Positions 11,384 to 37,756 of a stretch of 64,000 bases of DNA are shown here, one piece after another. The stretch is from a virus. The notes beneath the pieces were generated by a model that did no database searches, was not told the origin of the DNA, and saw only the letters and a program-made list of their open reading frames with translations. How positions within the stretch are numbered: position 1 is the first letter of the stretch; every line of letters begins with the position of its first letter. The translations under genes and the position numbers were made by a program. The DNA lies in the IMG/VR virus record IMGVR_UViG_3300035698_018106, positions 166,717 through 230,716 of that record. One strand, given 5' to 3'.

Positions 11384-12280
11384 TTATTTTAATTTACTTA
11401 GACACCAATCAATTAATGGGTTTCCTGTTTCTTTTGAATAATCTGGATCTTGTCCATTTATAATTGGATTTAGGATTTTTTTATATTTTTCTAATATATT
11501 TCCATATTCATCAACTACTGGTTCAGATAATAAAGGGAGGGAATTTGATTTAAATTCTGATCTTTCACAAAAATTAGGTCCAACCATTTTATTAATTAAA
11601 TCATAATGTCTTTCATATACATGCATTGAATGACTTATATGAGTATAAGAACCCATTTTCAAATCTTTATAATATTCTTTTAAATGCAAAAATACATGAT
11701 AATGTAGAACGCTGAAAAAGGCCCAATCTGTCATAAAACCATATATCACATCATTACTTCTCATAGATAATGTCATATGTAATTTATTTTCTCTAATATG
11801 GAATAAAGATTGTAAAGTACATACTTGATCTTTATTTTCTAGAAACTGATGAGAAGGTTTATTATAATGCATGAATGCTTGTCTAGAATCTTTATCTTTT
11901 TTAAGAGATGCTATCACCCAGTTATACTGGGTGAATCCATGTTCATTCTTTTCACTGAATAATAGATTACCATAAGAACTATTTACTGTACCATCAGCGT
12001 TATGTAGTGACTTCCATAAACCTGCATATTTTTCAATATAAGTAGGGTTATTTGTTCCACTAAAATACCATAATAATTCTGCCGCTATATATTTTAATGG
12101 AGAACTTCTATATTTATTTTCATAAATATTTTCTAATGGATTTTCTATTTCCATAGCACAATCTCTTATTTCTTTAACTTCTTGTCCTCTTGGAGATATT
12201 ATGAAATCCGGATCAAGTAATATACTTTCTAAAACTAATTCAAATACCTTTGTTATGTTTTCTCCTGAATAATATCTCAT
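11384..12280 (-). CDS. deoxycytidylate 5-hydroxymethyltransferase (T4 gp42-like, thymidylate-synthase fold)
   Basis: HYNKPSHQFLENKDQVCTLQSLFHIRENKLHMTLSMRSNDVIYGFMTDWAFF aligns with T4 gp42 YTRPSMQFDYNKDGMSDFMCTNTVQYLIRDKKINAVVNMRSNDVVFGFRNDYAWQ. The catalytic Cys is present. Asp lies 31 residues after the Cys, matching the Asp179 specificity position of dCMP hydroxymethylase. Confidence 0.7.
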   Translation of the reverse strand: MRYYSGENITKVFELVLESILLDPDFIISPRGQEVKEIRDCAMEIENPLENIYENKYRSSPLKYIAAELLWYFSGTNNPTYIEKYAGLWKSLHNADGTVNSSYGNLLFSEKNEHGFTQYNWVIASLKKDKDSRQAFMHYNKPSHQFLENKDQVCTLQSLFHIRENKLHMTLSMRSNDVIYGFMTDWAFFSVLHYHVFLHLKEYYKDLKMGSYTHISHSMHVYERHYDLINKMVGPNFCERSEFKSNSLPLLSEPVVDEYGNILEKYKKILNPIINGQDPDYSKETGNPLIDWCLSKLK

Positions 12281-12804
12281 TTATATAAATTTTTGTGAAT
12301 TTTTGAACAATATTTAATTTGTAATTTACAATCATCAATTGCATTATGAGCCACACCTTTGTTCTCTTTAACTATATCTTTTTTAATTATAGGATTCAAA
12401 TATACTAAAGTTCTCACATCTAATTCGTTTCTAAAATCCCATGGAATGTTAACATTTATTTTATTATAAGCATCTGATAATAATCCAAGATCAAACCTAG
12501 CACTATTACCCCAAACATAATCTTTTTCATTAATAAATTCACTTAAATGAAACAAAACCGAATGTAAACCACCTTGATCTTTTTTAAGTGCATCTCTCGC
12601 TGACCCACTTTGTGATAACCACCATTGAATAGTTTTTCCAGAGACTTTTAATCCCATATCTAAACATGTATCTATATCTATGTTTTTGTAAAATTCTTCA
12701 CCTGTTTCGCCTGTTTCTAAATTAAAACGTACTGCACCTATCGATATAATTACTGAATTACTCTGAGTGCCCAAAGTTTCAATATCTAACATTATGTGAT
12801 TCAT
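12277..12804 (-). CDS. DnaQ-like (DEDDh) 3'-5' exonuclease, T4 dexA-like
   Basis: LDIETLG N-terminal motif and C-terminal VAHNAIDDC; KVSGKTIQWWLSQSGSARDAL resembles T4 dexA HRLFTKSTIEWWKNQSPEARKNI. Confidence 0.65.
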   Translation of the reverse strand: MNHIMLDIETLGTQSNSVIISIGAVRFNLETGETGEEFYKNIDIDTCLDMGLKVSGKTIQWWLSQSGSARDALKKDQGGLHSVLFHLSEFINEKDYVWGNSARFDLGLLSDAYNKINVNIPWDFRNELDVRTLVYLNPIIKKDIVKENKGVAHNAIDDCKLQIKYCSKIHKNLYK

Positions 12805-13561: not shown

Positions 13562-14611
13562 TTATTTTAAATCATTTATCATCATTTTACTTACCAACTC
13601 TTTAAATGAAGTTAATGGAGACCATCCTAATTCATCTTTGGCTTTTAAATTTTGTCCTATTAATAATTCAACTTCTGCAGGTCTATAGAATTCAGGATTA
13701 ATATTTATTAAAACTATATTATTATACATTAATTTTTCTGATAATCGTGATCCTGTCCATTTGACTTTTCCATTAAATGGGGTGTGTTTAATAGCTTCAT
13801 CAATAAATTCTTTAATTGTATGAGTTTCATTTGTAGATAATACAAAATCATCAGCTTTATCATGTTGTAACATCCTCCACATTCCTTCTACATAATCAGG
13901 AGCATATCCCCAATCTCTTTTAGCATATATATTTCCTAATGATATTGGATCTATAACTTGTTTTTGTTCGGATACTAATTGATAGCTTTTAGATAATTTA
14001 GATAATCCTAGTGTTATTTTTCTAGTTACAAAATTACTACCTCTTCTTTCACTTTCATGATTAAATAATATTCCATTAGAAATAAACATACCATAAGATT
14101 CTCTATAATTTTTTGCAATCCAATAAGAGTATAATTTTGCAATCCCATAAGGAGATCTTGGATAAAAAGGTGTGGTTTCACTTTGAGGAGTTTCTCTTAC
14201 TTTACCGAATAATTCTGAAGTACATGCATTATATAATTTTGCTTTAGGAGCAAATTTACGAATAGATTCTAATAAACTTAAAGTTCCTACTGCATCAACA
14301 TCTGCTGTATATTTTGGAATTTGAAATGATATATGGACATGTGATTGTGCTGCTAAATGATATATCTCATCCGGAATAACTTTTTGCATAACATTATCTA
14401 ATCCAATTGGATCTGTCATATCTCCAAAATGCAAATTAAAATTTTCATTCTCAAAGATATGATTTAATCTTTGAGTATTAAAAGAAGAAGATCTTCTTAC
14501 TATTCCATGTACTTCATAACCTTTATTTAATAAAAGTTCTGCAAGATACGATCCATCTTGTCCAGATACACCTGTGATCAGTGCTTTTTTCTTGTATTTT
14601 TCTAATTTCAT
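13562..14611 (-). CDS. gmd: GDP-mannose 4,6-dehydratase
   Basis: ALITGVSGQDGSYLAELLLNKGYEVHGIVRRSSSFNTQRLNHI, ...TTPFYPRSPYGIAKLY...FNHES..RG..FVTRKIT, and ...FYRPAEVELLIG match the GMD family (E. coli Gmd) along the whole length. Confidence 0.85.
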   Translation of the reverse strand: MKLEKYKKKALITGVSGQDGSYLAELLLNKGYEVHGIVRRSSSFNTQRLNHIFENENFNLHFGDMTDPIGLDNVMQKVIPDEIYHLAAQSHVHISFQIPKYTADVDAVGTLSLLESIRKFAPKAKLYNACTSELFGKVRETPQSETTPFYPRSPYGIAKLYSYWIAKNYRESYGMFISNGILFNHESERRGSNFVTRKITLGLSKLSKSYQLVSEQKQVIDPISLGNIYAKRDWGYAPDYVEGMWRMLQHDKADDFVLSTNETHTIKEFIDEAIKHTPFNGKVKWTGSRLSEKLMYNNIVLININPEFYRPAEVELLIGQNLKAKDELGWSPLTSFKELVSKMMINDLK

Positions 14612-14620: not shown

Positions 14621-15214
14621 TTAATTTTTTTTATTTATAAATTCTAAAACCTCATTAAAAATAATATCTTTATCTCTATATGAATCTCCTTCATTAACTG
14701 TTATTAATTTCTTATTTGGTATTAAGCTTATTGAATGTGCTTCTTTAAATAATCTAAGTTCTTTTGATTTATCTTCTATATTTTGTGAAAAAGATTCACC
14801 ATCTTCTTGTGCTAAGAAAAATCTAGGAGATGCAGTAAGAGTAATTAAATATTGATCTGTTTCTCTATTTCTAGATTCAAACGTTTTTATCATTTCAATA
14901 ACATCTGATTTCTTTATACCTCTAAATAATTGAGAATATACATATTCACCTAAATGACTTCTATTCCAAATTAATATATTATCATGATACCCCCATTTAT
15001 CTCCATCTATACTTTCAGAAATGTGATTAGCAAATAACATTTCTTTATAAAAAACTTCAAATTGAAATTCTAATGTTTCTTTTATAGTTAGATTAGTTGG
15101 AGGTTTATCAAAATGTCTTATTGTAATATTATTATACTTATAATGTGCACAAAGACTTTCTAATATAGTATTTTTACCTAATCTATCTCCACCTTCAATA
15201 ATTATATGCTTCAT
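14621..15214 (-). CDS. P-loop nucleotide kinase-like protein (possible dNMP kinase)
   Basis: N-terminal IIIEGGDRLGKNT Walker-A-like motif; located between the hydroxymethylase and gmd genes. Confidence 0.35.
   Translation of the reverse strand: MKHIIIEGGDRLGKNTILESLCAHYKYNNITIRHFDKPPTNLTIKETLEFQFEVFYKEMLFANHISESIDGDKWGYHDNILIWNRSHLGEYVYSQLFRGIKKSDVIEMIKTFESRNRETDQYLITLTASPRFFLAQEDGESFSQNIEDKSKELRLFKEAHSISLIPNKKLITVNEGDSYRDKDIIFNEVLEFINKKN
14632..14639 (-). promoter_or_regulatory. T4-type late promoter box TATAAATA (minus strand), ~20 nt upstream of the gmd ATG
   Basis: Exact octamer (tatttata on the plus strand). Confidence 0.35.
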
Positions 15215-15241: not shown

Positions 15242-15670
15242 TTATAATACATGGTTTTGCCAATGTCCGGTTGGATACGAATAATTTATATAAAATTTTA
15301 ATGTAGATTCATTTCCATTAATATTTCTATTAAAACATCCATAATAAGCATCTTCATCTCTAAATTGTTTAATATGCATATCATTCAATTCTTTCTTTAT
15401 AAACTCAGCTGCTTGTTTTTGATCTTCTGTTCCAATTACAGAGCTACCAACGATCCAAGGACAAATAGTATTTAAATAATTATTAGAATATTCTTTATCA
15501 GAATATTCTAATAATTCTGAATAGAACACAATTCCAATTGGTTGTGTTCTAAAATCTACATTCTTAACTATATAATGACTATCTTCTTGATTCCACCCAT
15601 AATCAATAAATTTACTAATAAAAATATTTAGTTGTTCATCTATATGTTCAGCAATATTTACTTTTTTCAT
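15242..15670 (-). CDS. hypothetical protein
   Basis: ORF only. Confidence 0.35.
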   Translation of the reverse strand: MKKVNIAEHIDEQLNIFISKFIDYGWNQEDSHYIVKNVDFRTQPIGIVFYSELLEYSDKEYSNNYLNTICPWIVGSSVIGTEDQKQAAEFIKKELNDMHIKQFRDEDAYYGCFNRNINGNESTLKFYINYSYPTGHWQNHVL

Positions 15671-15891
15671 AATTGTATTGTATCTAATCCTTCATTATTA
15701 AATGGTACAAAAACTGTATATTGACCATATATCCAACCACCTGGGACTCTTGTTATTCTGTAACCATTTATATCTAAACACATATCATTTAATTTTAATT
15801 TATACATTTCTTTAGTAACACTAGATGGTGTTAGATTATTAGATCTTGCTGACTCTGGTTTTGGTGGTGGAATATCTGGTAGATGTCTCAT
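15667..15891 (-). CDS. hypothetical small protein
   Basis: ORF only. Confidence 0.3.
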   Translation of the reverse strand: MRHLPDIPPPKPESARSNNLTPSSVTKEMYKLKLNDMCLDINGYRITRVPGGWIYGQYTVFVPFNNEGLDTIQL

Positions 15892-15899
15892 GTTTTAAA

Positions 15900-16454
15900 T
15901 TATTTCGTTAATATACTTAAAAAATTCTTTGCAGCTTGATTAGCTATTTTATGTATATCTTCTCTATTTTTATATGATTTTTCATTTCTATCATATTCAT
16001 CTTTAAATGCCATTGCTATATTAGCTTGCCATCCCATATAATAGTCTGTATCATTTTTCATTTCTGTAGTAATTATACCTATTGCTTCTTTTATATCAGG
16101 TTTAATTTCTATAAAAGTTTCCAATTTATTACAAATTGAATCTTTAAAATGATCTACATCATCTAATGTTTTTATTGTAATATTATCTTTCTTAGAAAAC
16201 AAATCATTTAAAACAGTAAAATCTAGAACACGATTAATATGTCCAAAGAATATTTGTCGCTGTGAAACATTTGACCATTCATTTGCACTACTATATCCTT
16301 CATATTTTGCAACTCTAAGAATTAAATATGATAGATCTTCATTTTCTTTATAATAATAATTATTTGGCATTGACCAATTAAAAAATAAGTTATCTTCTTT
16401 AAAGATTTTATTTAAATCATTACATAGTTTTGTTATTGATATTACATTTTTCAT
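15900..16454 (-). CDS. hypothetical protein
   Basis: ORF only. Confidence 0.35.
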   Translation of the reverse strand: MKNVISITKLCNDLNKIFKEDNLFFNWSMPNNYYYKENEDLSYLILRVAKYEGYSSANEWSNVSQRQIFFGHINRVLDFTVLNDLFSKKDNITIKTLDDVDHFKDSICNKLETFIEIKPDIKEAIGIITTEMKNDTDYYMGWQANIAMAFKDEYDRNEKSYKNREDIHKIANQAAKNFLSILTK

Positions 16455-17680
16455 TAAAATAATTGTTTAGATTTAATTCCTATATATTTTATATTATCTT
16501 GCATCATGAATTCATGGTTTGAAAATTGTCTTTCTCCTTTGATAATAGCAACTGCCTCTGAAATAATATCTTTACTTGTAGTTACCGGACAATTTTGCGG
16601 AATTTTACTATAATCTTTAGGGCCAGTTATTTCGAAATCATGTGGCATGCCCATCATGTGCATATATTCTCTGATGTTTATTCGTCTATCTTCTGTAGGA
16701 TGAACATTTCTTTCCATCATTTCTCCTACCACTGCATATATATGATTTTTATCTATGCATAAAACTCTATGAGATAATCTAAAGTTTTTACCCATCCCTA
16801 ATTTTTTTATCACATGATCAATATCTTTCTTAGATGCTGGATGAGCATCAGGTAAACTATATACATACTCTCTATATTGTTCAATTAAACCATTGCGATT
16901 TAAAAAATCATATGATGTTAAATGTTCTTTAGTTTTTATAAATTCTTCTCTCCATTTATCTCCATATATTTTTTCACAAAATTTCACAATTTCAAAATCT
17001 TTGATAAATGGTTCTTTTGTTGAATACTCGTTTTGCATTGATGCACACTCTGGGATCATCTTGAGGTATTCTGATACACTTAAATGTTCTTTATTATAGT
17101 AATCTAATATAGGAGCTTTATTTCCTTTAACGAACACTATATAAGTTCTAGGACGTCTTTGAGGAATGCCATGTAATAAAGTATCTGTTTTATAAAAAGT
17201 ACAAGCATAACCATTAGATTTAGCCTTTTCCATTAATTGGCTTCTTACATATTCTCCAACACCAGTAAATAAAGTCGGTGCATTTTCATATACATATATT
17301 TTAGGTTGTATGACACCTAAAATGAAATCTGCTGCTTTGTACATCCAATCATTAACTGGAGATTTTGATCTGGCACCTTTAGCTAGATTTCCAGACATTG
17401 AAAGGCCAGCACATGGAGGAACCCCATGTACAATATCTAATTCTCCAACAATATTTTTAATATCGGAATATTTACTTTCATCAATTTTGTCTAATTGGTA
17501 ATAAGTTGGATATATGTCATGTTGAGCAAGATAATTTAGATATAATTTATCGTTCTCAAAAAAAGGGGAGTATGAAAAAATGGCTTTTGGAGGGTTTTGA
17601 AGTATTTCAGTTGCTGCAATAGAAAAGCCTCCTATTAATGGTATTATTGCAGCATGATTTAATTTTTTTGATTTTAACAT
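16454..17680 (-). CDS. DNA (cytosine-5)-methyltransferase-like protein
   Basis: Motifs appear in canonical order. Motif I-like is PLIGGFS; motif IV (PC) is GVPPCAGLS; motif VI (ENV) is YENAP; motif VIII (QxRxR) is QRRPRTY; the C-terminal motif-X-like sequence is QNCPV. Confidence 0.6.
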   Translation of the reverse strand: MLKSKKLNHAAIIPLIGGFSIAATEILQNPPKAIFSYSPFFENDKLYLNYLAQHDIYPTYYQLDKIDESKYSDIKNIVGELDIVHGVPPCAGLSMSGNLAKGARSKSPVNDWMYKAADFILGVIQPKIYVYENAPTLFTGVGEYVRSQLMEKAKSNGYACTFYKTDTLLHGIPQRRPRTYIVFVKGNKAPILDYYNKEHLSVSEYLKMIPECASMQNEYSTKEPFIKDFEIVKFCEKIYGDKWREEFIKTKEHLTSYDFLNRNGLIEQYREYVYSLPDAHPASKKDIDHVIKKLGMGKNFRLSHRVLCIDKNHIYAVVGEMMERNVHPTEDRRINIREYMHMMGMPHDFEITGPKDYSKIPQNCPVTTSKDIISEAVAIIKGERQFSNHEFMMQDNIKYIGIKSKQLF

Positions 17681-17721
17681 GGACTTAATTATATTCTTTA
17701 TACTTTATATGGTAAAATTTC

Positions 17722-17772
17722 ATATTAGTTTTAAAAAATAATAAAAATTAACTAGGACGTGTTGTCCTAGTT
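17722..17772 (-). terminator. hairpin (aactaggac gtgtt gtcctagtt) followed by a T-rich tract on the minus strand; a second gtcctagg copy lies downstream
   Basis: 9-bp perfect stem seen in sequence; a T-run follows on the minus strand. Confidence 0.4.
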
Positions 17773-17941
17773 AATGTCCTAGGTCTTAATCGGTTTTGTT
17801 TTGTAATTTCTTTATTTCTATCATTATTTCTTCCATTCTTAGAAGATCTGGATCATCTTGGTTTATTATCTCAGAATTATCAAAATTATTAAGAATCTCA
17901 GTATGCTCTTTAATTAAATCAGAAATTAAATCCATATATAA

Positions 17942-25701: not shown

Positions 25702-26760
25702 ATGGAATTAATATACGATCGAAAAAAATATCATAAAACTATATCAGTAGATTTTGACGATACTTTATGCATTACTACTACTAGGGATTGGAAAAGTGCC
25801 GAACCACAATTCCCAATTATTAACAAAGTAAATTTATTATATGAACAAGGATGGCAGATTTTAATTATCACAGCTAGAGGTCAATTATCATGTGAAGGGG
25901 ACACTAAAAAGGCTGATAAAAAATATAGAAAAAATATAGAATCTTGGTTATCTAAACATTCTGTAAAATACCATCATTTGAGTTTTGAAAAGTATTTAGC
26001 ATCATATTATCTGGATGATAAAGCGCTGAATTTAGAAGATTTTGTTGATCTAGAAATAAGAGAAATAAAAACTGGGTGGTCAGGAGCTAAGGTAGAAAAA
26101 AGAGGTGATAGAATATTCAAAACACATCATGATTCAATTGAAGCTGCTAATTGGTATAATATGGCAGCACCTCTAATTAATGTGCCGATTGTTCACTCTA
26201 TGATAGGAGAGACACTATCTCTTGAATATCTTGAGGATAATGGAAAATATTTCAAAATAGATGATATCAATGATGCAATAACTAAATTTTCTCTTTATAA
26301 AACAAATATAGAATTTTCTACTTATGTTGAAAAAATGAGAAAACATTATAAATCAAATGAAGATTTTTATGAAGTAGATGATTTATTAAATGCCGAGGAT
26401 ATTTATATTCATTGTAATAACAAGTCTACATTTATGCATGGTGATCTTTCGTTAGAAAATGTAATTCAAACCAATGATGGACTATATTTTATAGACCCAA
26501 TATATAAAGAAAATGAATGGTCTTCTTATTTATTAGACATATCTAAAATGCTCCATTCATATAGAAAATATAATCGTATGTTTGAATATGAAGTATTTTT
26601 ACAGGGTTGGGTCAAAAAAGGATTAGATGAATTTATTCTCCGTTTATTAGAACTTACTCAATGGATACGTGTATTAAAATATATCAAAGATCCAATAGTT
26701 AAAAAAGATATGACAGAAAAAACAAAATCATTATTAAAGGAAGTCTTAGAAAACAAATAA
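25702..26760 (+). CDS. bifunctional HAD-superfamily phosphatase / APH(ChoK)-type kinase (putative sugar-phosphate kinase/phosphatase)
   Basis: N-terminus VDFDDTL (DxDxT HAD motif I); C-terminus HGDLSLENVI (HGDLxxxN kinase catalytic loop) followed by IDP. Confidence 0.5.
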   Translation: MELIYDRKKYHKTISVDFDDTLCITTTRDWKSAEPQFPIINKVNLLYEQGWQILIITARGQLSCEGDTKKADKKYRKNIESWLSKHSVKYHHLSFEKYLASYYLDDKALNLEDFVDLEIREIKTGWSGAKVEKRGDRIFKTHHDSIEAANWYNMAAPLINVPIVHSMIGETLSLEYLEDNGKYFKIDDINDAITKFSLYKTNIEFSTYVEKMRKHYKSNEDFYEVDDLLNAEDIYIHCNNKSTFMHGDLSLENVIQTNDGLYFIDPIYKENEWSSYLLDISKMLHSYRKYNRMFEYEVFLQGWVKKGLDEFILRLLELTQWIRVLKYIKDPIVKKDMTEKTKSLLKEVLENK

Positions 26761-27084: not shown

Positions 27085-27747
27085 ATGCTAGAAATAAAAC
27101 AATTAGAAGACGTCTTAAATTCTAAAAATTTTCCAGGGAGAGATATTAATATAAAAGTTAAAGAATTAATCGAGAATAGACAAACATTTACTTCGATAAT
27201 TAGTCCTGATGCTATTAATTCTCTTAAAGCTTATGGGATTAATGCAAAAGAATTAATCGATAACCATATGATAGATACATTAATTGATAATATCTATCGA
27301 TATATTTCGCAAAGATCTTTTGAAAATCCGGCAGTAACTAAGAAAATTAAAGATACCAAAGATGTTAAAAATCTAATAGACACATTAAATAACAAAAAAG
27401 GTTTTGCTATTACTAATGTACAAACGGCCACAATGTTACAAGACCATCCATCTTTTGTACATACTTATTTAAATTCTGAATATGGAAATTCTTTTTATAA
27501 ATTAGGTAAATTTAATAAAGTATCTATATATGTAGATGCAAATATGATATGGGATGATAATAAGATATGCTATATATCTGATGATTTTTATAATTTCAAT
27601 GTTTTATCTATTGATATAATAGCCGAAAGTACATACACACCTAAATATAAAATTACTTTATTTTATACTGAAAATCCAAAAAATAATGAAGTATATAATT
27701 TAACGTTAAAAACACCTTTTATACCTTTTATATATGAACATATTTAA
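27085..27747 (+). CDS. truncated paralog of the major capsid protein C-terminal region
   Basis: KGFAITNVQTATMLQDHPSFVH...NSFYKLGKFNKVSIYVDANMIWDDNKICYISDD matches the C-terminus of this window's own capsid protein (ANFIVTNLKLATALQTNSQYTF...GSLYPLGTIAGMTVYVDPNMVYEDTRVLVGRKG) and of T4 gp23. Confidence 0.5.
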   Translation: MLEIKQLEDVLNSKNFPGRDINIKVKELIENRQTFTSIISPDAINSLKAYGINAKELIDNHMIDTLIDNIYRYISQRSFENPAVTKKIKDTKDVKNLIDTLNNKKGFAITNVQTATMLQDHPSFVHTYLNSEYGNSFYKLGKFNKVSIYVDANMIWDDNKICYISDDFYNFNVLSIDIIAESTYTPKYKITLFYTENPKNNEVYNLTLKTPFIPFIYEHI

Positions 27748-28201
27748 AGCAATATCAGACTTAAAAAAAGATGGTAAAATCATTGGGTTTACTGCATCAA
27801 CATTTGACCTATTACATGCCGGCCATGTAATAATGTTAGATGAAGCCAAAACCCAATGTGATTTTCTAATAGTAGGTTTATTAACAGATCCTACTAAAGA
27901 TAGAGATACCAAAAATGCTCCAATCCAAACAACATGGGAAAGATGGATACAAACTCAAGCTCTTGGATCTATTGATACTATCATTCCTTTTGATACTGAA
28001 GAGGATTTAGAAAATATGATTAAAGTTCTCAAACCTGATGTCAGATTTGTTGGGGATGAATATAAAAATACTAAACATACTGGTCATGATATTAAAGGCG
28101 TTAATATCATATATAACAAAAGAGAACATAATTACGGATCCACTCAATTAAGAAATAAAATATATAATCAAGAATTACCTAATCATTTAATTAAGAAATA
28201 A
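27734..28201 (+). CDS. cytidylyltransferase-family nucleotidyltransferase (TagD/RfaE-domain-II-like)
   Basis: GFTASTFDLLHAGHVIMLDEAK...FLIVGLLTD (HxGH motif). Confidence 0.6.
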   Translation: MNIFKAISDLKKDGKIIGFTASTFDLLHAGHVIMLDEAKTQCDFLIVGLLTDPTKDRDTKNAPIQTTWERWIQTQALGSIDTIIPFDTEEDLENMIKVLKPDVRFVGDEYKNTKHTGHDIKGVNIIYNKREHNYGSTQLRNKIYNQELPNHLIKK

Positions 28202-28202: not shown

Positions 28203-28709
28203 ATGAAATTAACAGGTCACTTTTTACCATTTAATGTAAAAAATAAAAATGGAAGAATTTATCCAAAAGAATTATCAGAGAAAATGTTAGTACAATTCAA
28301 AGAACGGCAAGAATTAGGATTAATTTTTGGACAATTGGGACAAGATTCTTTTCCAGAGTGTGAATATTATACATCTAATTTAAATCATCCATCTCATATA
28401 GTTGAAGAAATTCACTATAATGAAGAAAATAATTCAATTGATGGTACGATTGAAATACTAGATAATTATCAAGGAAAAGTATTAAAGGAAATATTTGAAT
28501 CATCAGGTCCAATATATGTTGCATCTAGATCAATTGGATCAGTAGATACTAGTGGTAATGTACAATTAGAACAATTATTATCATTTGATATAGTTCAAGA
28601 ACCAGCTTTTAGTGGTGTTGAATTATTGGAAAAAGAACCGGCGATATATAATAAAAGTGATGAACAAATTGTTGTTGATACACTAAATAAAAAATGGAAA
28701 AGTAAATGA
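28203..28709 (+). CDS. stand-alone paralog of the gp21-type prohead protease domain
   Basis: KNGRIYPKE...LNHPSH...GTIEILDNYQGKVLKE...VASRSIGSV parallels the N-terminus of the 796-aa ORF (NRNGRVYEE...GELDHP...GRIEILDGTPKGKIAK...SISSRAAGSV). Confidence 0.5.
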   Translation: MKLTGHFLPFNVKNKNGRIYPKELSEKMLVQFKERQELGLIFGQLGQDSFPECEYYTSNLNHPSHIVEEIHYNEENNSIDGTIEILDNYQGKVLKEIFESSGPIYVASRSIGSVDTSGNVQLEQLLSFDIVQEPAFSGVELLEKEPAIYNKSDEQIVVDTLNKKWKSK

Positions 28710-29956
28710 GAATATTAGTTTTAGATACATTAATCCAAACAGTGGATTTTGATAAACCAGTAAGAGGAGGATTAGTTAAAGCAGTATGGAATGATGTTAT
28801 AGCATTATCAGAACGTCATGATGTTTTTTATATGTATTATGGAAAAGCAACATTTGATTATAAATTTCATTCAGTTATATTAGGGAAAAAAGGTGCTAAA
28901 GATTGGTGTGTAACAAATAAGAAAAAGACATCTTTATCTCATTATAGATTAAGAAAAGAAATTCCAACTTATATTAATACTATATCAGATATACAGCCTG
29001 ATATATTAATTATAAATGTTGAATCTAAATCTATGTATCTAGAACAAATTGCGAAAAAATTTATAGATATACCAAAGATTTTTGTCTTCTATGATGGTGT
29101 TTCTAATAATGATTTATTTGGAACGGCCGGAATTATAGGCACAATCATTAAACTTAAAAAATATAATTCTGTTATCACTACCATATCAGAGTATACAAGA
29201 TATACAATAACTCAGGTTATGATTGATAGAGAACCTGATATGAGAAAATATTATAAGTTTATGGAAGAAATCAAAGATGTTAATACTTATCAATTATTTG
29301 ATGGGGTATTTGATCATTTTGTTTACTATGACAATAAAATAAAATTAGATATTATAGAAAATGAAGACTTTTCTGTAAATATAGGAAGATACCAAAAGAA
29401 AAAAGGAGTTTTAGATTTACTTCTTCTACATAAGTTTAATAACCATATGGTTAAACTTTTTGGTATCAAAGATCCAGTATGGGATGAAGGATTAAAAGAT
29501 TACAAAAAGATAGTTGCAGCAGTTGAACAATATGATAATTATATCTTATGTGAAGCTTTTTCTGATGAAGAATTAATCAATGATGCTAAAGGAGGTAATA
29601 ACATCATCATTTCATGTCCAGTTGAAGGATTTGGATATACTGCATTTGAAATGGGTATATATGGTATGCCCTGTGTTATTCTAAAACACGGAGAAAGACA
29701 TGCAACTGAAGAATATCTAAAAAAGATTGGAGCATCATATGTTGTAATTAATAAGAAACAAAATAAAAATTGGAAAGAAGAATTATATAGTGCTATTTTA
29801 CTCACTAAATTATCATTAGAAGAAAAAGAAGAGAATGCTAAGAAATTCTTAGATTATTTTACTAAAGATAATTATATAGACGAAAGAGAAATGTTTATTC
29901 AAATGGCTATTAAAAAGATAGAGGACAACTCTGCTAATTCAAATAAATTATTTTAA
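28706..29956 (+). CDS. putative GT-B glycosyltransferase (GT4-like)
   Basis: C-terminal CPVEGFGYTAFEMGIYGMPCVI resembles the GT4 E..FG...EAMA.G.PVI motif. Confidence 0.4.
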   Translation: MRILVLDTLIQTVDFDKPVRGGLVKAVWNDVIALSERHDVFYMYYGKATFDYKFHSVILGKKGAKDWCVTNKKKTSLSHYRLRKEIPTYINTISDIQPDILIINVESKSMYLEQIAKKFIDIPKIFVFYDGVSNNDLFGTAGIIGTIIKLKKYNSVITTISEYTRYTITQVMIDREPDMRKYYKFMEEIKDVNTYQLFDGVFDHFVYYDNKIKLDIIENEDFSVNIGRYQKKKGVLDLLLLHKFNNHMVKLFGIKDPVWDEGLKDYKKIVAAVEQYDNYILCEAFSDEELINDAKGGNNIIISCPVEGFGYTAFEMGIYGMPCVILKHGERHATEEYLKKIGASYVVINKKQNKNWKEELYSAILLTKLSLEEKEENAKKFLDYFTKDNYIDEREMFIQMAIKKIEDNSANSNKLF

Positions 29957-30822: not shown

Positions 30823-32259
30823 ATGCAAAAAAATAAATACGAAGGATTACGAATTGCTAACATTGCTGCGCAGGGTGCAGATGGCTGTGGTGTTCAAGCT
30901 GGCTCTAAACAATTAATGATTTGGGCTAAAAAGAATAATGTAACAGTAGATTACTATGCATATAATAGAAAATATACAAGATCAGATGGCCATGATATGC
31001 CAATTAATTATTTCGGAATATCAAAAAAGAAGAAAGATAAAGATTTAAAGGGACTTAGAGAAACAGCTGAATATATTAATGATAATTATGATATTGTAAT
31101 GTTCATGAATTATCCAAATGCTAAATCGGATCCAGAAGTATATAAAGGATTTTATTTTGATTTTTTCGAAGTTATTCAAAAACCCCAGAAAGCGTTGTAT
31201 ATTCATGAGATAAGAGGTGCTCAATTTAATAGATTAGCTTATATAGTTCCAATGATTGTTAATTCTGATATAGTATTTCATTTTGAAACTACAACTACTC
31301 TTGCTACATTAATAGATAAAATTGGATTGCAAAAGAGATTTGAGAGATTACATAAATATACCCTTTGGATGGATTTCGATGACCTTGACCAATGGAGAAA
31401 TAAGTATATTAATAACAAACAATTGGGTGTATCTAGTGTCACTAGATGGTCATCTAGTAAGAATGTAAGGCGGACGATAGATATCATGGATGAAGTTCAA
31501 CAATTAAAACCTGATTGGGACTGTCAAATACATGGAATTGAAAGATCTATGGGGGCTAAGATTGATGTTTTAGATTATCCAAAGACAATTTACGTAAATC
31601 CAAATGGGAAAAAAGATAATGAATATCATGGTTGTGTATTAGTATCAGGACCAGTTGATAGAAATATTGGAGTTGATATTGTATCATCGCATATGTTTTC
31701 TACTGCATTTTGGAGTATGCCAAGAGATCCAGAGAATTATGGAAATAGAATGGAGTATACTCAAATTGAAATTATAGGAGCAGGCACAATCCCAATTCTA
31801 GATAAGCATTGGGGAGAAAATAATAGAACAAGAGATGGTAAACGATATATTGATATACCTTATTCAGCTGTATATACTGACGGTAATGATCTTAAAGGGA
31901 TTGCAGAAACGCTAATTAAAATAGCTAATGATAAAGAATTAAGGCAAAAATATCTAGATACAGCATATTCATTAGTAGTACAAGAATTTGGAGCAGATAC
32001 TATTATACCTGAAGCTATTGATATGATTCAAAGTGTTGGTAAGAATAAAAAAATAATGGATATCAAAGAAATAAGTAAAACTTTCATGAATGATACTTTT
32101 GCCGAAGAAATTTCTAAATTAGAATTAAAAGGAAAACAACCTGTTTATAATATAGATTCTTTTCTTAATGGAAAGATAAGTATATTAGAAAATAAGAAGG
32201 AAGTTTTTATTAAGAAAATCAAGAAAACCACCGGTGGAAAAACTAAATCTTTATTTTAA
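30823..32259 (+). CDS. hypothetical protein (possible glycosyltransferase)
   Basis: Long ORF in the glycosyltransferase island; no firm motif. Confidence 0.35.
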   Translation: MQKNKYEGLRIANIAAQGADGCGVQAGSKQLMIWAKKNNVTVDYYAYNRKYTRSDGHDMPINYFGISKKKKDKDLKGLRETAEYINDNYDIVMFMNYPNAKSDPEVYKGFYFDFFEVIQKPQKALYIHEIRGAQFNRLAYIVPMIVNSDIVFHFETTTTLATLIDKIGLQKRFERLHKYTLWMDFDDLDQWRNKYINNKQLGVSSVTRWSSSKNVRRTIDIMDEVQQLKPDWDCQIHGIERSMGAKIDVLDYPKTIYVNPNGKKDNEYHGCVLVSGPVDRNIGVDIVSSHMFSTAFWSMPRDPENYGNRMEYTQIEIIGAGTIPILDKHWGENNRTRDGKRYIDIPYSAVYTDGNDLKGIAETLIKIANDKELRQKYLDTAYSLVVQEFGADTIIPEAIDMIQSVGKNKKIMDIKEISKTFMNDTFAEEISKLELKGKQPVYNIDSFLNGKISILENKKEVFIKKIKKTTGGKTKSLF

Positions 32260-32873: not shown

Positions 32874-33599
32874 ATGAATATAATAAACCAGAGATTTGAT
32901 AAAGTTGTATGTATAAATCTTATTAATAGACCTGATAAGAAAAAGAACATGCAAGAGAAGTTTGATAAATTAGGAATAGAAGTAGAATGGTTTGACGCAG
33001 TGCCTTATGGTTTTGCGAAAGATATAGTTGATTCTTTACCTAATATGAATACATCTAATACTTTTCCTAGATTTAATAAGAAAACACCTAATGAATTTGG
33101 TGCTAGTATGTCTCATTACACTGTGATAAAAACAGCTTTATTACAAGGTCACGATAATATCTTTGTTTTTGAGGATGATGTAATGTTTAGAAAAGACTTT
33201 AAAAAACATTTTGAACAATCTTATAACACATTACCTAAAAATTGGGATATGATTAATTTATATTCATTTATGTATAAAATTAATTCGGAAAATATTAGAA
33301 TAAATGCAAGATGGATTAAATCTTCTCAAGGATGGTCTTTAATGGCATATGGAATGAATAGAAAAGCTATGCTCAGATATATAGTAGAACAAGATAAATA
33401 CTTCCGGATTGCAGATTTAGTTTCATATGAGATGCAAAATAAAGACTTAAATATATATTCAGCTATACCTACTCTTGCTGTACCTAATCAATCATTAGGA
33501 AGTAATATAAGAGAAAATATGAATTATGCTAAAACTAGTGCAGCCGTACAAGCTACTACTGTATTAAATATGGGTTATGGTAATGAAAATTATGAATAA
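32874..33599 (+). CDS. glycosyltransferase family 25 (LPS-biosynthesis Lic2B/LgtB-like)
   Basis: FDKVVCINLINRPDKKKNM...LGIEVEWFDAV, GASMSHYTV and IFVFEDD are typical of GT25. Confidence 0.55.
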   Translation: MNIINQRFDKVVCINLINRPDKKKNMQEKFDKLGIEVEWFDAVPYGFAKDIVDSLPNMNTSNTFPRFNKKTPNEFGASMSHYTVIKTALLQGHDNIFVFEDDVMFRKDFKKHFEQSYNTLPKNWDMINLYSFMYKINSENIRINARWIKSSQGWSLMAYGMNRKAMLRYIVEQDKYFRIADLVSYEMQNKDLNIYSAIPTLAVPNQSLGSNIRENMNYAKTSAAVQATTVLNMGYGNENYE

Positions 33600-33601
33600 T
33601 T

Positions 33602-33787
33602 ATGAATAGAAAAAGTATAAGATCTCATCCAATATGGAGTCAATTAGAAGATATGAAATTAGGAGAAGAAATTCAAGAAGATGTTTGGAACATAGTAAAA
33701 ATTCCAGGAGGCTTTATAGTTAGCAGATTAAATTATAATAGTGTATTTGTCCCGGAACAAAGTTCTGTCCATAGTTTTAATCGTTAA
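33602..33787 (+). CDS. hypothetical small protein
   Basis: ORF only. Confidence 0.25.
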   Translation: MNRKSIRSHPIWSQLEDMKLGEEIQEDVWNIVKIPGGFIVSRLNYNSVFVPEQSSVHSFNR

Positions 33788-33811
33788 ATGTCCACCCTTT
33801 AAAAAAATAAT

Positions 33812-34723
33812 ATGTCTAGTATACAAGAAGCTTATCAATCTAAGATTAACAAAAGAAAAAAATTAAATGGTACATTAAAAATTGCATATGCTAATTTTTG
33901 GCCAGAATGGAATGAAGAAAATTTCATAAAACCAATTCTTAATTATCATTTTAACGTTGTAATAGATCAAAAAAATCCTGATGTAGTTTTTCATTCTATA
34001 TTTGGTGGATTAAATGAAGTATCTAAATATACTAAAGCAAAGAAAATATTATTTTTAGGAGAAAATCACCGACCTAAAAAATATGGATCTGATTATTCTA
34101 TATCTTTTGATCCTACTTCAGATACAAATTTTAGACTTCCATTATGGCAAGCATATATGTTTTTAAACTCTGGATATTTTAATAGATTATTTAAAAGAGA
34201 AAATATAGGATTGTTTGATAGATTTTGTTCTTTTACTGTTTCAAATCCGGCTAATTTTATGAGAAATAGTATGTATCAGCAAATGAATTCATATAAACGA
34301 GTTCACTCATATGGTAGATATTTACCTAATGATCAAGGATTACAAAATGCATCTAAAGGAAATTATTGGAGAGATGTAAAAGATAAATTTTTCCAAGAAA
34401 ATACTCATAAATTTGCTATAACATACGAAAACTCTCCTTATCCTGGCTACACAACAGAAAAATTAATGGATGCTTTCTTGGTAGGTTCAATGCCAATATA
34501 TTGGGGCGATCCTAAAGTTAAAGAAGATTTTAATGAAAAAGCTTTTATTAATGTTAGCGATTATGGAGGTAATTTAATGAATGTAATTAAAAAAATGGAT
34601 ACTGATAGAGATGTATTTGATGCAAAATACAATCAGCCAGTTTTTACTGATTTACAAAAAGATAAATTTTTAAATAATTTAAACGAATTCGAAAATTGGT
34701 TAGTTAATAACATAAAAAAATAA
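33812..34723 (+). CDS. alpha-1,3-fucosyltransferase (GT10)
   Basis: KFAITYENSPYPGYTTEKLMDAFLVGSMPIYWG matches the GT10 signature FxLxFENS...GYxTEK(L/F)xDA...G.PIY.G. Confidence 0.6.
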   Translation: MSSIQEAYQSKINKRKKLNGTLKIAYANFWPEWNEENFIKPILNYHFNVVIDQKNPDVVFHSIFGGLNEVSKYTKAKKILFLGENHRPKKYGSDYSISFDPTSDTNFRLPLWQAYMFLNSGYFNRLFKRENIGLFDRFCSFTVSNPANFMRNSMYQQMNSYKRVHSYGRYLPNDQGLQNASKGNYWRDVKDKFFQENTHKFAITYENSPYPGYTTEKLMDAFLVGSMPIYWGDPKVKEDFNEKAFINVSDYGGNLMNVIKKMDTDRDVFDAKYNQPVFTDLQKDKFLNNLNEFENWLVNNIKK

Positions 34724-34727
34724 AACA

Positions 34728-35497
34728 ATGATAAAAATTAATAAAAATAATATAAGCTTTTTTGTTTCACCTGACACAATACATTTAGAATGGTTTACTA
34801 AAAGATATCAAGATTGGGAACCAAATTCTTTTGATATAATAAAGAAATTTATTGAGCCATCAAAAACTTTTATTGATATAGGAGCACATATAGGGTTGAT
34901 ATTATTATATGCTGCCCCTTTCTTTAAAAAAATATTGGAATAGAATGTGATCCTGTCGCTTTTGATTCATTAAAGAAAAATATAGATATGAACTTTTTCA
35001 AAAATAAAGTATTTTTAGAAGAAGTAGCTATTAATGACAAAGAAGAAGATGTTTTCATTGGAGCAGCAGGAAGATCTGCTAAATGGGGAGGAAGTGGTAT
35101 AGCTTTTGATAATTCTGGAATTAATACGAAAAAAGTTAATGGAGTTTCTATTGATTATATAGAAGAAAAATATAGTTTAGATAATGTTGGTTTAGTTAAA
35201 ATCGATATTGAAGGAGGTGAAGCTAAAGTGTTAGAAAGTATGAAATTTTTCTTTATCCGTCATCAAGCTAATATGTTTTTATCTTTACATCCGCATTTAA
35301 TGAGTATTGATAATATCGAAAAAACAATTGATGATATATATGATACATTTAATTATGTTTATGATGATAAGTTACAGTTAATGGAACGAGAATTTGCTAT
35401 TAATAAATATATCAATAATAAAAAACTTATAGAATTAGGTAAAATGAATAGTAGTGAACATCAAGAAATAATTGGAACATTTTCTAAAATTAAATAA
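34728..35497 (+). pseudogene. FkbM-family methyltransferase split by a 1-nt frameshift in an A7 run (ORFs 34728..34943 and 34988..35497)
   Basis: The N-terminal part carries FIDIGAHIG; the C-terminal part carries VKIDIEGGEAKVLE. Reading from 34934 in the second frame gives IGIECDPVAFDSLKKNIDMNFF, and an 8th A would fuse the two ORFs. Confidence 0.55.
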
Positions 35498-35513
35498 AAA
35501 GTATAATTAAATA

Positions 35514-36344
35514 TTGATAACAAAATTAAAAATACATGATATGAAAAAGCCGATTATAATAACAGCTTTTAATGATAATCCAACTTATTATTCTTTCGTT
35601 GAATCATCATTTAAAATGTGGAAAAAGTTTGGATATAATATTAAAGCCGCTTATATTTCTAATAATCATAATCCTGAAGTTATTAAAAATACAGAAAAAT
35701 ATGGTGAAATAATTAAATATCCAAATATAAATGGTATTGAATCAGGAGTTCAAAGTAAAATATCTAGAATGATATTAGCGTCAGAACAATCTTATTTTTG
35801 GATTGTTGATATTGATTGGTATATTTTAAATATTAATTGGTTTGAGGAAAAATTTAAACTTTTTAATGGCATGAATATAGTAGCCCAGGATGTATATGGT
35901 GGTAATAATACAGATTCTACTAAATGGCCAATGTGGAGTAATTTTGGATCAGGAAATAAACTTAAAGAAATTATTAATCCAAATAACTTAAATTACGAAG
36001 AATTAATTAAAACTTGGCAAAATATTGGATCTAAATTTGATATTATGGAAGATGTTAATAATTCATTTAAACAATTTTCAGATGAATCATTAATGAGAAG
36101 ATTATTTAATGATGCTAACTATGATATTAAAAGATATAAAAGAATGGAGCCTAATATATTTAATAGTCATGTAAATAGTCCATTGTATTATAGAAATGTA
36201 TGGAGACGTATTGATAGAGCTTGGAATTGGAATTATTATAAAGAAGATATAGAAAATGGACAATATTTAGATTGTTTTCCAAAGAGACCTTTAAATAAAA
36301 AAGATCATGTAATATCTGAAATTTTTAAATACATTGATATATGA
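35514..36344 (+). CDS. hypothetical protein (possible glycosyltransferase)
   Basis: ORF only. Confidence 0.35.
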   Translation: MITKLKIHDMKKPIIITAFNDNPTYYSFVESSFKMWKKFGYNIKAAYISNNHNPEVIKNTEKYGEIIKYPNINGIESGVQSKISRMILASEQSYFWIVDIDWYILNINWFEEKFKLFNGMNIVAQDVYGGNNTDSTKWPMWSNFGSGNKLKEIINPNNLNYEELIKTWQNIGSKFDIMEDVNNSFKQFSDESLMRRLFNDANYDIKRYKRMEPNIFNSHVNSPLYYRNVWRRIDRAWNWNYYKEDIENGQYLDCFPKRPLNKKDHVISEIFKYIDI

Positions 36345-37030
36345 TACAGCCAACAGCAGTTTTAAACTTAGAAAGAGGTAAATCTCGCAAAGCATTAATG
36401 TCCAAACAACTAGATGCTAAAGGTATACCATACTTTTTCTTTCCTGCATTTGATGGGAAGGATATTATTAATTTTTCTGTACATGGACATATTACTTATG
36501 GGTCAGGTATAGGTAGAAAATTTAATCCAGCAGAAATAGCAATTACAAATGGACATATGTCTGTTATAAAACATGCTGAAGTTATGAATTATGATCATAT
36601 TATAATTCTAGAAGATGATATAGTTGTTTGTGATGACTGGAATAAAAGAATAAATTGGATTTTAGAAAATGTTCCAGAAGATTGGGACTATATCTATTTA
36701 TCAGGTCATTCTGATTATATAAAAATCCCAATCTTTGAAGAACCAAACATAATAAAAGCTCCGAAAATGGTTGGAGCTTTTTCATATATTGTTAATAAGA
36801 AAGCCTATTCTAAAATTACAAAATTTTGTAGTTCATATATCACTACATATGATGATATGATTATGCATATGATTGATTTAGGCAAAATAAATGGGTATTT
36901 GGCACTTCCTTTTTTAACATTTCATGATGCAAATGAATCAATGATATGGCAGGAAGATCCATTAAAATATAAAAAGAATGATAATGATCATCATTCATCA
37001 TATAAATATTTTAGAAATAATATATTATGA
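36341..37030 (+). CDS. glycosyltransferase family 25
   Basis: AVLNLERGKSRKALMSKQL...GIPYFFFPAFDG, ITNGHMSVIKH and IIILEDD. Confidence 0.5.
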   Translation: MIQPTAVLNLERGKSRKALMSKQLDAKGIPYFFFPAFDGKDIINFSVHGHITYGSGIGRKFNPAEIAITNGHMSVIKHAEVMNYDHIIILEDDIVVCDDWNKRINWILENVPEDWDYIYLSGHSDYIKIPIFEEPNIIKAPKMVGAFSYIVNKKAYSKITKFCSSYITTYDDMIMHMIDLGKINGYLALPFLTFHDANESMIWQEDPLKYKKNDNDHHSSYKYFRNNIL

Positions 37031-37728
37031 CCGAAATTTTTATTTACCATCATATGGGATTAGGTGATTATTTAATATTAAATGGATTTGTCAGAAATGT
37101 AGCAGAATCTTATGATAGAATATGGTTATTCGCGAAACCTGGTAATGAATCAAAAAATATTAGGAGGTTATATAAAGACAATAAAAAAATAATTATCATA
37201 TCTTTAAATGATAAAGAAGTTCATGATTATATGAGAATATTCGCCTTTAATAATTATATGGTAGTTGGCCATACTCCTGATTTTTTTAAAAGAGTAGATG
37301 ATCCAACAAATGGGAAAACTTTTGATGAGTTATTTTTTGAAGATCACAATATACCATTTGAATATAAATGGGATAAATTTCATTATGAACGAGATTTAGA
37401 AAAAGAAAAAGAAGTGTTCTATGATATATTAGGATTAGATGATAAATCAGAGTTTAATTTTATTCATGAAAACAAAGTCAGACCGGTTATAAGAGGAATT
37501 GATAGAAATATAATGGCTATACATCCAGATAATCCAGCCATAAGTATATTTGATTATCTTTATACTATTGAAAAAGCAAAAGAAGTTCATGTAATGAATA
37601 GTTCTTTTATGAATTTAATAGATTGTATTCAATTAAGACAAGGTGGATTGTTTTATCATGAGTATAGCCGGCCAGGAATTAATACTAGGTTAAGATTACC
37701 ATGGAAAGTATTTACAGTAAAACTATGA
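37027..37728 (+). CDS. hypothetical protein
   Basis: ORF only. Confidence 0.35.
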   Translation: MTEIFIYHHMGLGDYLILNGFVRNVAESYDRIWLFAKPGNESKNIRRLYKDNKKIIIISLNDKEVHDYMRIFAFNNYMVVGHTPDFFKRVDDPTNGKTFDELFFEDHNIPFEYKWDKFHYERDLEKEKEVFYDILGLDDKSEFNFIHENKVRPVIRGIDRNIMAIHPDNPAISIFDYLYTIEKAKEVHVMNSSFMNLIDCIQLRQGGLFYHEYSRPGINTRLRLPWKVFTVKL

Positions 37729-37756
37729 TAAAAATTTAACATATAAAAATAAAACA

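Follow-up and report, generated by a model that had tools for sequence, protein, structure and literature searches.

An apparently virus-restricted subfamily of C5-cytosine methyltransferase-fold proteins with remodelled cofactor-side motifs, encoded next to predicted 5-hydroxymethylcytosine synthesis genes in phages

The DNA considered here is a stretch of 64,000 nucleotides (the window), positions 166,717 to 230,716 of the IMG/VR virus record IMGVR_UViG_3300035698_018106. It is of the T4-like myovirus type, with a Gp23 capsid protein, a prohead protease and a GC content of about 27%, and a megablast search with 20 kb of it did not return a match among deposited phages. On the minus strand, an open reading frame (ORF) at positions 16454..17680 encodes a 408-residue protein with the fold of C5-cytosine DNA methyltransferases (C5-MTases), which is called the MTase in the following. 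A preliminary description of the window had given exactly these boundaries, and had pointed out that a C5-MTase has no obvious substrate in a phage that is predicted to replace cytosine by 5-hydroxymethylcytosine (5hmC). The subfamily that includes the MTase appears to be confined to viruses. Its members deviate from the canonical motif I and have a serine in place of the motif II glutamate, and their genes are found next to those predicted for the synthesis of 5hmC.

The identity of the protein is supported by sequence and by predicted structure. A Pfam search, as suggested in the preliminary description, matches it to PF00145 with an E-value of 1.3e-20 and 74.6 bits, against a curated cut-off of 22, in an alignment that is limited to residues 64-356 of the MTase and positions 45-300 of the profile. 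There are also matches to PHROG DNA-methyltransferase families, and the name used in source annotations is 'site-specific DNA-cytosine methylase'. The AlphaFold2 (AF2) model, based on an alignment of 83 homologs, has a pLDDT of 92.4 and a pTM of 0.90. When it is compared with the PDB using Foldseek, the top 50 matches are all C5-MTases (E-values down to 3e-14), among them MET1, DIM-2, ZMET2, DNMT1, CmoX, M.HhaI and M.HaeIII. In view of the PF00145 score, the confident model and the exclusive presence of C5-MTases among the top structural matches, the MTase is a real feature and not a chance collection of motifs. The genes and features that surround it, and that are relevant for its interpretation, are the following.

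11384..12280, minus strand: thymidylate synthase (TS) homolog with the gp42 signature (L143D, D169, N177D), predicted 5-hydroxymethyl-dCMP synthase
12277..12804, minus strand: Rv2179c-like 3'-5' exonuclease
13562..14611, minus strand: GDP-mannose 4,6-dehydratase (nucleotide-sugar tailoring)
14621..15214, minus strand: dNMP (thymidylate)-kinase-like P-loop protein, in closer relatives usually encoded directly next to the MTase
15242..16454, minus strand: three small ORFs (184, 74 and 142 residues) without assigned function between MTase and kinase, not conserved beyond close relatives
16454..17680, minus strand: C5-cytosine DNA methyltransferase-fold protein, 408 residues, ATG start (ORF list, PF00145, AF2 model)
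17688..17775, minus strand: terminator-like hairpin (17775..17747), then a match to a sigma-70-like promoter (17716..17688), both shortly before the MTase ATG
25702..26760, plus strand: protein with HAD-phosphatase-like N-terminus and kinase-like C-terminus, resembling the bifunctional HAD/APH enzyme known from heptosyl-5hmC synthesis
27734..28201, plus strand: cytidylyltransferase-like (heptose-1-phosphate adenylyltransferase-like) nucleotidyltransferase (E 6e-32)
28706..29956, plus strand: GT-B (Glycos_transf_1-like) glycosyltransferase
30823..32259, plus strand: full-length homolog of the T4 DNA alpha-glucosyltransferase (phrog_2888, E 2.7e-69; PDB 1y6f, E 4.6e-11)
32874..40409, plus strand: glycan-tailoring block with two GT25 proteins, a GT10 alpha-1,3-fucosyltransferase, two FkbM methyltransferases, DUF6165 and unknowns

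The TS homolog, 4 kb downstream of the MTase, is most similar to the T4 dCMP hydroxymethylase in the PDB (1b49, E 6e-23, compared to 1e-8 for ThyA), and its 13 active site positions EWYDCTMRSNDGD are identical to those of T4 gp42. In E. coli ThyA numbering, N177D in TS homologs is diagnostic of a dCMP substrate, L143D/E of a hydroxymethyl or hydroxy product instead of a methyl product, and D169N of the flavin-dependent 5-hydroxy-dCMP synthases, according to a paper of 2026 (PMC13326640). The window protein has N177D, L143D, a retained D169 and the catalytic Cys146, and is thus of the gp42 type. In view of N177D, L143D and the retained D169, its interpretation as an ordinary ThyA, as a dCMP methylase or as a 5-hydroxy-dCMP synthase was rejected. 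The dNMP-kinase-like protein is a candidate hm-dCMP kinase.

The alpha-glucosyltransferase homolog aligns over residues 9-402 with residues 4-401 of PDB 1y6f. In the ORF at 25702..26760, the HAD-like N-terminus matches phrog_1238 (E 1e-19), and the C-terminus is kinase-like only weakly. In a metavirome cluster (contig 53), a trio of HAD/APH, cytidylyltransferase and GT-B proteins makes heptosyl-5hmC (bioRxiv 10.1101/2023.12.21.572611). The HAD/kinase-like, cytidylyltransferase-like and GT-B genes of the window resemble this trio by description. Altogether, synthesis of 5hmC followed by its glycosylation is well supported in silico for the window phage. The earlier prediction that the phage replaces cytosine by 5hmC is supported in silico by the gp42 signature of the TS and by the alpha-glucosyltransferase homolog, for a replacement that may be complete or partial. 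No dCTPase, dCMP deaminase, CmoA or TET-like gene was found among the ORFs scanned in the 64-kb window (small ORFs were outside the scan).

In comparison with the 5hmC system of the T-even phages (gp42, gp1, alpha- and beta-glucosyltransferases), the window shares the gp42 active site signature, an alpha-glucosyltransferase homolog, a dNMP-kinase-like gene and the Gp23 capsid. It differs by the addition of the C5-MTase, by a far larger sugar repertoire (heptose, GDP-sugar, fucosyl and GT25 functions) and by the lack of a recognised gp56-type dCTPase in the window. The glycan block at 32874..40409 far exceeds the needs of T4. Its products might assemble an elaborate glycan on the DNA, or else act on the surface of the host or of the virion. 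Within the sugar block, a small ORF (28203-28709, plus strand) weakly matches Peptidase_S77, a family of prohead core proteases (E 1e-4), the actual prohead protease being encoded at 42650-45040. GC skew and AT skew flip sign at about 25 kb and about 40 kb (~25000 and ~40400), where the coding strand switches for the glycosylation block of 25.7-40.4 kb. Genes for a calcineurin-like metallophosphatase and a CYTH (triphosphate tunnel) protein adjoin at 46264-47465 (minus strand), and a triphosphatase of the CYTH type would be conceivable as a substitute for the dCTPase that is missing.

At 16454, the stop codon of the MTase gene and the start codon of the ORF behind it overlap. Together with the terminator-like hairpin and the promoter match upstream of the ATG, this suggests that the MTase might head a transcription unit that extends over the kinase and sugar genes in the direction of the TS. 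The evidence is weak, since promoter-like matches are frequent in AT-rich DNA (21 observed, 13.4 expected).

Motifs of the MTase were compared with those of M.HhaI using a MAFFT alignment of 23 family members and M.HhaI, mapped by script, with a HhaI reference identical to PDB 10mh_A. Conservation was counted over 87 family sequences from 86 loci, at 29-66% identity. The five strings noted in the preliminary description occur in the order given there (PLIGGFS at residues 14-20, PPCAGLS at 88-94, ENAP at 132-135, QRRPR at 174-178 and QNCPV at 362-366). The claim that they represent a complete and canonical C5-MTase motif set is overstated. It holds for the catalytic residues of motifs IV, VI and VIII, but not for motif I, which has lost FxGxG, or for motif II, where Ser36 replaces HhaI E40.

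On the catalytic side, the context of the nucleophile survives proper alignment. P89-C90 of motif IV corresponds to HhaI P80-C81, with Cys in 87/87 and Pro in 85/87 sequences. E132-N133 of motif VI (HhaI E119-N120) and Q174, R176 and R178 of motif VIII (HhaI Q161, R163 and R165) are invariant in the family. Motif IX is also present (R332..R337-E338..G344-x-P346, with R332, R337 and E338 invariant in the 87 sequences), and the target recognition domain is located between motifs VIII and IX, as in C5-MTases. The MTase thus has the fold, motif order, catalytic Pro-Cys, Glu-Asn and Gln-x-Arg-x-Arg, and motif IX of M.HhaI and other PF00145 proteins. The conservation pattern indicates that the catalytic residues are under selection. 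Since a C5-MTase fold is combined with an invariant nucleophile and invariant cytosine-binding residues, it is almost certain that the enzyme still flips the base and attacks C6 covalently.

The cofactor side is different. Motif I of the MTase reads I13-P14-L15-I16-G17-G18, so that HhaI F18 is replaced by Ile or Val, A19 by Pro and G20 by Leu; the FxGxG loop for S-adenosylmethionine (AdoMet) is absent, and the variant motif is invariant across the family. In motif II, the residue equivalent to HhaI E40, which interacts with the ribose hydroxyls, is Ser36 (Ser in 85/87, Thr in 2/87), and the aromatic residue after strand 2 is retained (HhaI W41, Tyr, Phe or Trp at position 37). In motif III, MAFFT places HhaI D60 on Q62, and Asp64, present in 78/87 sequences, follows two residues on, directly after strand 3 of the model. 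Other cofactor-side changes are Q82 to Ala or Ser91, V121 to Ala134, and L100 to Met113. In motif X, Q362-N363 is invariant; MAFFT and HMMER place HhaI N304 on Gln362 and S305 on N363, and a one-residue shift would pair Asn with Asn.

The family strings (I/V)-P-L-(I/A/V)-G-G, S-(Y/F/W)-x-x-F-x-x-N-(D/E), (P/C)-P-C-x-x-L-S, E-N-A-P, H-G-x-P-Q-x-R-x-R and Q-N-(V/C)-P are essentially invariant over the 87 sequences. Compared to M.HhaI, the family thus has (I/V)PLxGG for FxGxG, Ser or Thr for the motif II Glu, ENA for ENV and QN(V/C)P for GNSV, whereas such outgroup phage C5-MTases as those of Melnitz, RN05-S and FPSV-S2 have retained F-x-G/C-x-G, the Glu of motif II, SPPC and ENV. The cofactor pocket equivalences are based on the MAFFT and HMMER alignments and on the secondary structure register of the AF2 model (strand 9-12, loop, helix 18-27; strand 33-36, helix from 38; strand 59-62), and agreement of this register makes the motif I and II equivalences consistent. 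Pfam, hhalign and profile searches of the PDB align only about residues 50/72-185 and 323-368, and residues 1 to about 50-64 never aligned to known C5-MTases in Pfam, hhalign or hmmsearch against the PDB.

The family is large. A word-index search found 203 MTase homologs, almost all of them metagenomic, an exhaustive search with the MTase gave 441 representatives at 50% identity (E <= 1e-30), and relatives are encoded on at least 586 IMG/VR contigs. Gene neighbourhoods were compared in 86 fetched loci, many of which are truncated, and which form 57 groups after dereplication. The window gene that most often accompanies the MTase in these 86 loci is the TS (51 loci). Next in frequency are the HAD/kinase-like gene (33 loci), the dNMP kinase (20 loci), the nucleotidyltransferase (18 loci) and the alpha-glucosyltransferase homolog (12 loci). 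Where at least 8 kb are available on both flanks, a TS homolog lies within 7 kb of the MTase and on the same strand in 25 of 29 loci. Among dereplicated loci with full flanks, the TS is found within 10 kb in 23/26 cases, counting the divergent TS of S-TIM5. The gp42 signature is present in 50/50 complete TS genes of MTase loci. The gene order is not fixed, since the TS precedes the MTase in some loci and follows it in others. The other genes of the window are present in no more than 11 loci. The linkage is seen across 29-66% identity and in at least four phage backgrounds, namely the T4-like window, a contig with a PolIII-alpha replicase (L051), S-TIM5 and XG4.

On the 143-kb contig L051, genes for TS, DUF6378, a dUTPase-family protein, HAD/kinase, nucleotidyltransferase, alpha-glucosyltransferase, MTase, epimerase and thymidine kinase are all on one strand. 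The dUTPase-family gene (L051:6634-7071), which separates the gp42-type TS from the sugar genes, is a candidate dCTPase/dUTPase of the module, for which no counterpart was recognised in the window.

Cultured carriers of the family are the TIM5-like cyanophages, among them S-TIM5, S-TIM54, S-TIM61 and S-TIM66, and the Pseudoalteromonas phage vB_Psh_XG4 (XG4). In XG4, a gp42-type TS is encoded 4.6 kb from the MTase. The S-TIM5 homolog has the motifs IIPLVGG, LPPCAGLS, ENAP and QNVP, and the TIM5-like phages are annotated with a DNA alpha-glucosyltransferase. The S-TIM5 'ThyA' (L005:8769-9605, AEZ65733.1), 2.4 kb from the MTase, carries Asp in place of N177 and Cys in place of L143. Asp in the former position predicts dCMP instead of dUMP as the substrate, and the annotation as a thymidylate synthase is therefore probably wrong. 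By the same token of sequence, S-TIM5 DNA may carry a modified cytosine.

By contrast with the family, four outgroup phage C5-MTases have no gp42-type TS within 10 kb. Literature searches did not find a description of a C5-MTase paired with a gp42-type TS. The substrate paradox is real, and general beyond one phage, as the family is nearly always encoded beside a gp42-type dCMP hydroxymethylase.

Extensions of family members are mostly without Pfam domains, with a single CXXC-type finger among them. In the family member P0166 (L098:297-2093, on a 2.4-kb Tara Oceans contig), a Lys/Glu-rich linker is followed by a half CXXC zinc finger 'CRECKYCRDKKKYGGQNKMKQSC' with a KYGG/KQ loop. The CXXC finger is otherwise a eukaryotic domain, and reads unmethylated CpG. 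This family member may come from a virus of eukaryotes.

In a collection of 185,579 prokaryotic species, represented by one genome each, there are four loci of the family, all of them on contigs of metagenome-assembled genomes. Two are syntenic with the window including structural genes, and a third has a TS, a kinase and a Gp23-like gene. All four look like phage contigs, and hence the family looks virus-restricted. On this basis, an ordinary restriction-modification methylase of cellular origin was rejected as an explanation of the MTase.

The dependence on 5hmC synthesis appears to be one-way. The three closest relatives of the window TS (64-73% identity) are in loci collinear with the window (in window ORF numbers, orf33, orf30, SET-domain gene, orf27, variable slot, kinase, GDP-mannose dehydratase, exonuclease, TS, orf12 onward), but have no MTase in the slot. 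The sister phages L096 and L097 keep the kinase, TS and sugar genes, and an ankyrin gene fills the place of the MTase. Ankyrin repeats are unusual in phages; the proteins in the slot (L096:6751-7560 and L097:5646-6446) have 266-269 residues, and an ankyrin gene is also found near the MTase in L004. To our knowledge, T-even phages do not have a C5-MTase. The collinear sister phages and the T-even phages indicate that the 5hmC module can do without the MTase. The reverse case, an MTase in the absence of the module, is rare, and the MTase would be dispensable and accessory. The single-protein scan from the TS side reached only the three close relatives, so that the frequency of the MTase given a gp42-type TS is known only qualitatively.

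What the MTase acts on, with which cofactor and for which purpose, we infer from these comparisons. The favoured interpretation, to which we assign a probability of roughly 0.45, is that the MTase acts after replication, as an accessory enzyme that modifies C5 of those cytosines which 5hmC has not replaced. In the simplest case, it would methylate them with AdoMet bound in a remodelled pocket. The gp42-type enzyme would make 5hm-dCMP, which the kinase would activate for incorporation by the polymerase, and the T4-alpha-glucosyltransferase-like and heptose-pathway enzymes would glycosylate the incorporated base. The MTase would then flip a remaining cytosine out of the helix for attack of Cys90 on C6, with Glu132, Arg176 and Arg178 holding and activating the flipped base, and C5 would be modified, probably with a methyl group from AdoMet. 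Targets would be phage cytosines that escaped 5hmC incorporation, and less likely host DNA. As a result, no bare cytosine would be left for restriction enzymes.

An unmodified cytosine as the target, or partial replacement, is supported by the invariant catalytic residues, the dispensability of the gene in sister phages and the CXXC finger, which in this analogy gives a hint of an unmodified target. An adenosine-containing cofactor such as AdoMet is plausible because the adenine-side contacts are kept in kind (aromatic residue 37, M113 and the conserved Asp). Methylation from AdoMet is favoured for the same reason, and because other AdoMet-family enzymes (SET, FkbM) are encoded in the window, the gene is dispensable and a CXXC-type finger occurs in the family. 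The SET-domain protein (20103-20777, minus strand, Pfam E 3e-9) would be a phage protein-lysine methyltransferase; its gene is kept upstream of the MTase in L001, L003, L091, L092, L096 and L097.

Several points weigh against the favoured interpretation. The loss of FxG in motif I and the change of the ribose-binding Glu to Ser or Thr are invariant in the family, and absent from the outgroup phage MTases and CmoX, so that binding of AdoMet is not assured. Complete replacement, as in T4, would leave no substrate in phage DNA. The lack of a recognised dCTPase in the window, with the rest of the genome out of view, is compatible with partial replacement. Finally, confinement to 5hmC-making viruses would not be expected of an ordinary protective methylase. 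Of the three alternatives of the preliminary description (activity on host DNA or a transient unmodified pool, a repurposed enzyme, partial replacement), none is singled out: some of the evidence favours an unmodified cytosine substrate or partial replacement, and some favours a repurposed enzyme.

A repurposed MTase-fold enzyme, which would combine the same Cys-C6 chemistry with another donor or substrate, appears somewhat unlikely on balance, but is the main competitor. It could be a DNA-level cytosine hydroxymethylase that uses formaldehyde or methylene-tetrahydrofolate to convert residual cytosine to 5hmC for the glycosyltransferases, or it could activate 5hmC in DNA for substitution or removal. 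In vitro, even ordinary C5-MTases are documented to turn cytosine into 5hmC when formaldehyde is supplied, and to attach thiols to 5hmC (PMC7176277). The invariant cofactor-side changes (F18 to Ile/Val, A19 to Pro, G20 to Leu, E40 to Ser/Thr, V121 to Ala, Q82 to Ala/Ser, N304 to Gln) and the N-terminal region of about 60 residues that does not align to known C5-MTases speak for a repurposed enzyme; even CmoX, which uses carboxy-S-adenosylmethionine (Cx-SAM), retains F25, E47, F48 and D69. The confinement of the family to viruses and its tie to the 5hmC module point in the same direction. On the other hand, no cofactor-supplying gene is specifically linked to the MTase, the conserved aromatic residue and Asp at adenine-contact positions suit AdoMet equally, and a step that sister phages can dispense with is not obligatory for the pathway. 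Moreover, we know of no biochemical precedent for a natural DNA-level cytosine hydroxymethylase or a 5hmC-activating enzyme of the C5-MTase fold. We regard it as unlikely that the entire subfamily has swapped cofactor or substrate, as a DNA-level C5-hydroxymethylase or an enzyme that acts on 5hmC or on cytosine-containing host DNA, with the Cys-C6 mechanism kept, without methyl transfer from AdoMet, and meaningful only in 5hmC viruses. Such a swap would explain together the loss of the FxG motif and of the ribose-binding Glu, the virus restriction and the one-way dependence on the gp42-type gene.

Less likely still is the idea that the MTase is an ordinary orphan anti-restriction C5-methylase, associated with 5hmC for the historical reason of travelling in one mobile nucleotide-metabolism module, with a motif I that has drifted neutrally and remains compatible with AdoMet. 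It would agree with the name given in the sources, with the intact catalytic motifs, and with a variable slot that is occupied by an unrelated gene in sister phages, as is typical of accessory phage methylases. However, the changes in motifs I and II are invariant and not drifting, the linkage to the TS persists over the whole range of identities, gene orders and phage backgrounds, the outgroup phage C5-MTases lack it, and the four sampled loci from cellular assemblies are all phage-contig-like.

The MTase might also catalyse the first step of a post-replicative route, in which a C5-MTase makes 5mC, a TET/5mYOX enzyme oxidises it to 5hmC, and a glycosyltransferase follows (PMC8256090; bioRxiv 10.1101/2023.12.21.572611); the C5-MTases published for this route form phage-specific clades with GpC specificity. 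The TET clusters likewise place a C5-MTase with DNA glycosyltransferases and nucleotide-sugar enzymes, including a GT-B DNA glycosyltransferase and the HAD/APH and cytidylyltransferase heptose module, and TIM5-like cyanophages are annotated with a 2-oxoglutarate (2OG)-Fe(II) oxygenase somewhere in the genome. This origin of 5hmC is very improbable for the window phage, because the partner of the MTase is instead the gp42-type TS, which acts before replication, and an oxygenase partner was not found: there is no TET/JBP or 2OG oxygenase among the scanned ORFs of the window or in L001, L003 and L051, and a tblastn search over about 90 family loci gave one marginal match, with sensitivity limited by the use of a non-TET oxygenase as the query.

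SpCmoX of the Synechococcus phage S-B43 (PDB 8yf3) is a DNA cytosine C5-carboxymethyltransferase that uses Cx-SAM, and the criteria for CmoX enzymes are an SPPC motif, an arginine (Arg350) where HhaI has N304, and a CmoA encoded nearby (PMC12783734). Like the MTase, SpCmoX is a phage enzyme of the C5-MTase fold; its donor is altered, and its product is a handle for hypermodification. Although SpCmoX is the best single-sequence PDB match of the MTase (E 1.8e-6), a CmoX identity is scarcely credible and was rejected, because the MTase has VPPC (the family (V/T)(P/C)PC) and not SPPC, the N304 position is occupied by Gln362 (or Asn363) with Arg in 0/87 family sequences, no match to the Cx-SAM synthase CmoA was found in the scanned ORFs of the window (small ORFs and the rest of the genome unscanned) or in L001, L003 and L051, HhaI and HaeIII outrank CmoX when the PDB is searched with the family profile, and SpCmoX, unlike the family, keeps the canonical set of F25, E47, F48 and D69. 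In the Synechococcus phage RN05-S, a small class-I methyltransferase is encoded beside a 372-residue SPPC-type DNA methylase with a motif X Arg (L089:9106-10945), with ParB nearby, and the pair looks like an unannotated CmoA/CmoX carboxymethylcytosine system.

The Bacillus phage G protein gp301 is a distant relative of the MTase, with CPCSGLS, ENAP, xQGVP and a non-FxG motif I. It differs by an identity of only about 24%, by the absence of a TS homolog within 10 kb, and by motif VIII Gln and motif X Asn not being conserved. The gene is flanked by two alpha-glucosyltransferase homologs, 36% identical to that of the window, a HAD phosphatase and a sugar-1-phosphate nucleotidyltransferase (glucose-1-phosphate thymidylyltransferase), which suggests that gp301-gp313 (L088) may be an uncharacterised DNA glycosylation cluster. 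The window also encodes a Tpt1/KptA RNA 2'-phosphotransferase (55251-55775, minus strand, E 5e-41) and a patatin-like phospholipase (45208-46245, minus strand, E 2e-21).

In the current picture, phage DNA hypermodification follows two separate routes, a pre-replicative one with TS homologs, and a post-replicative one with a C5-MTase and TET. What appears to be new here is a large, virus-only subfamily of the C5-MTase fold, with remodelled cofactor-side motifs, that is genetically tied to, and embedded in, the pre-replicative module for 5hmC and glycosyl-5hmC synthesis, and that includes proteins of the cultured TIM5-like cyanophages. If leftover cytosines are methylated, then 5hmC replacement would be incomplete in many environmental phages, and would be backed by a second layer of modification. 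Such a layer, if true, would affect the behaviour of phage DNA in sequencing, restriction and defence studies. Should the remodelled pocket instead reflect a donor not used by known enzymes of this kind, or 5hmC as the substrate, the family would stand for a novel natural activity on DNA and could yield an enzyme tool, as CmoX and the 5hmC carbamoyltransferase did.

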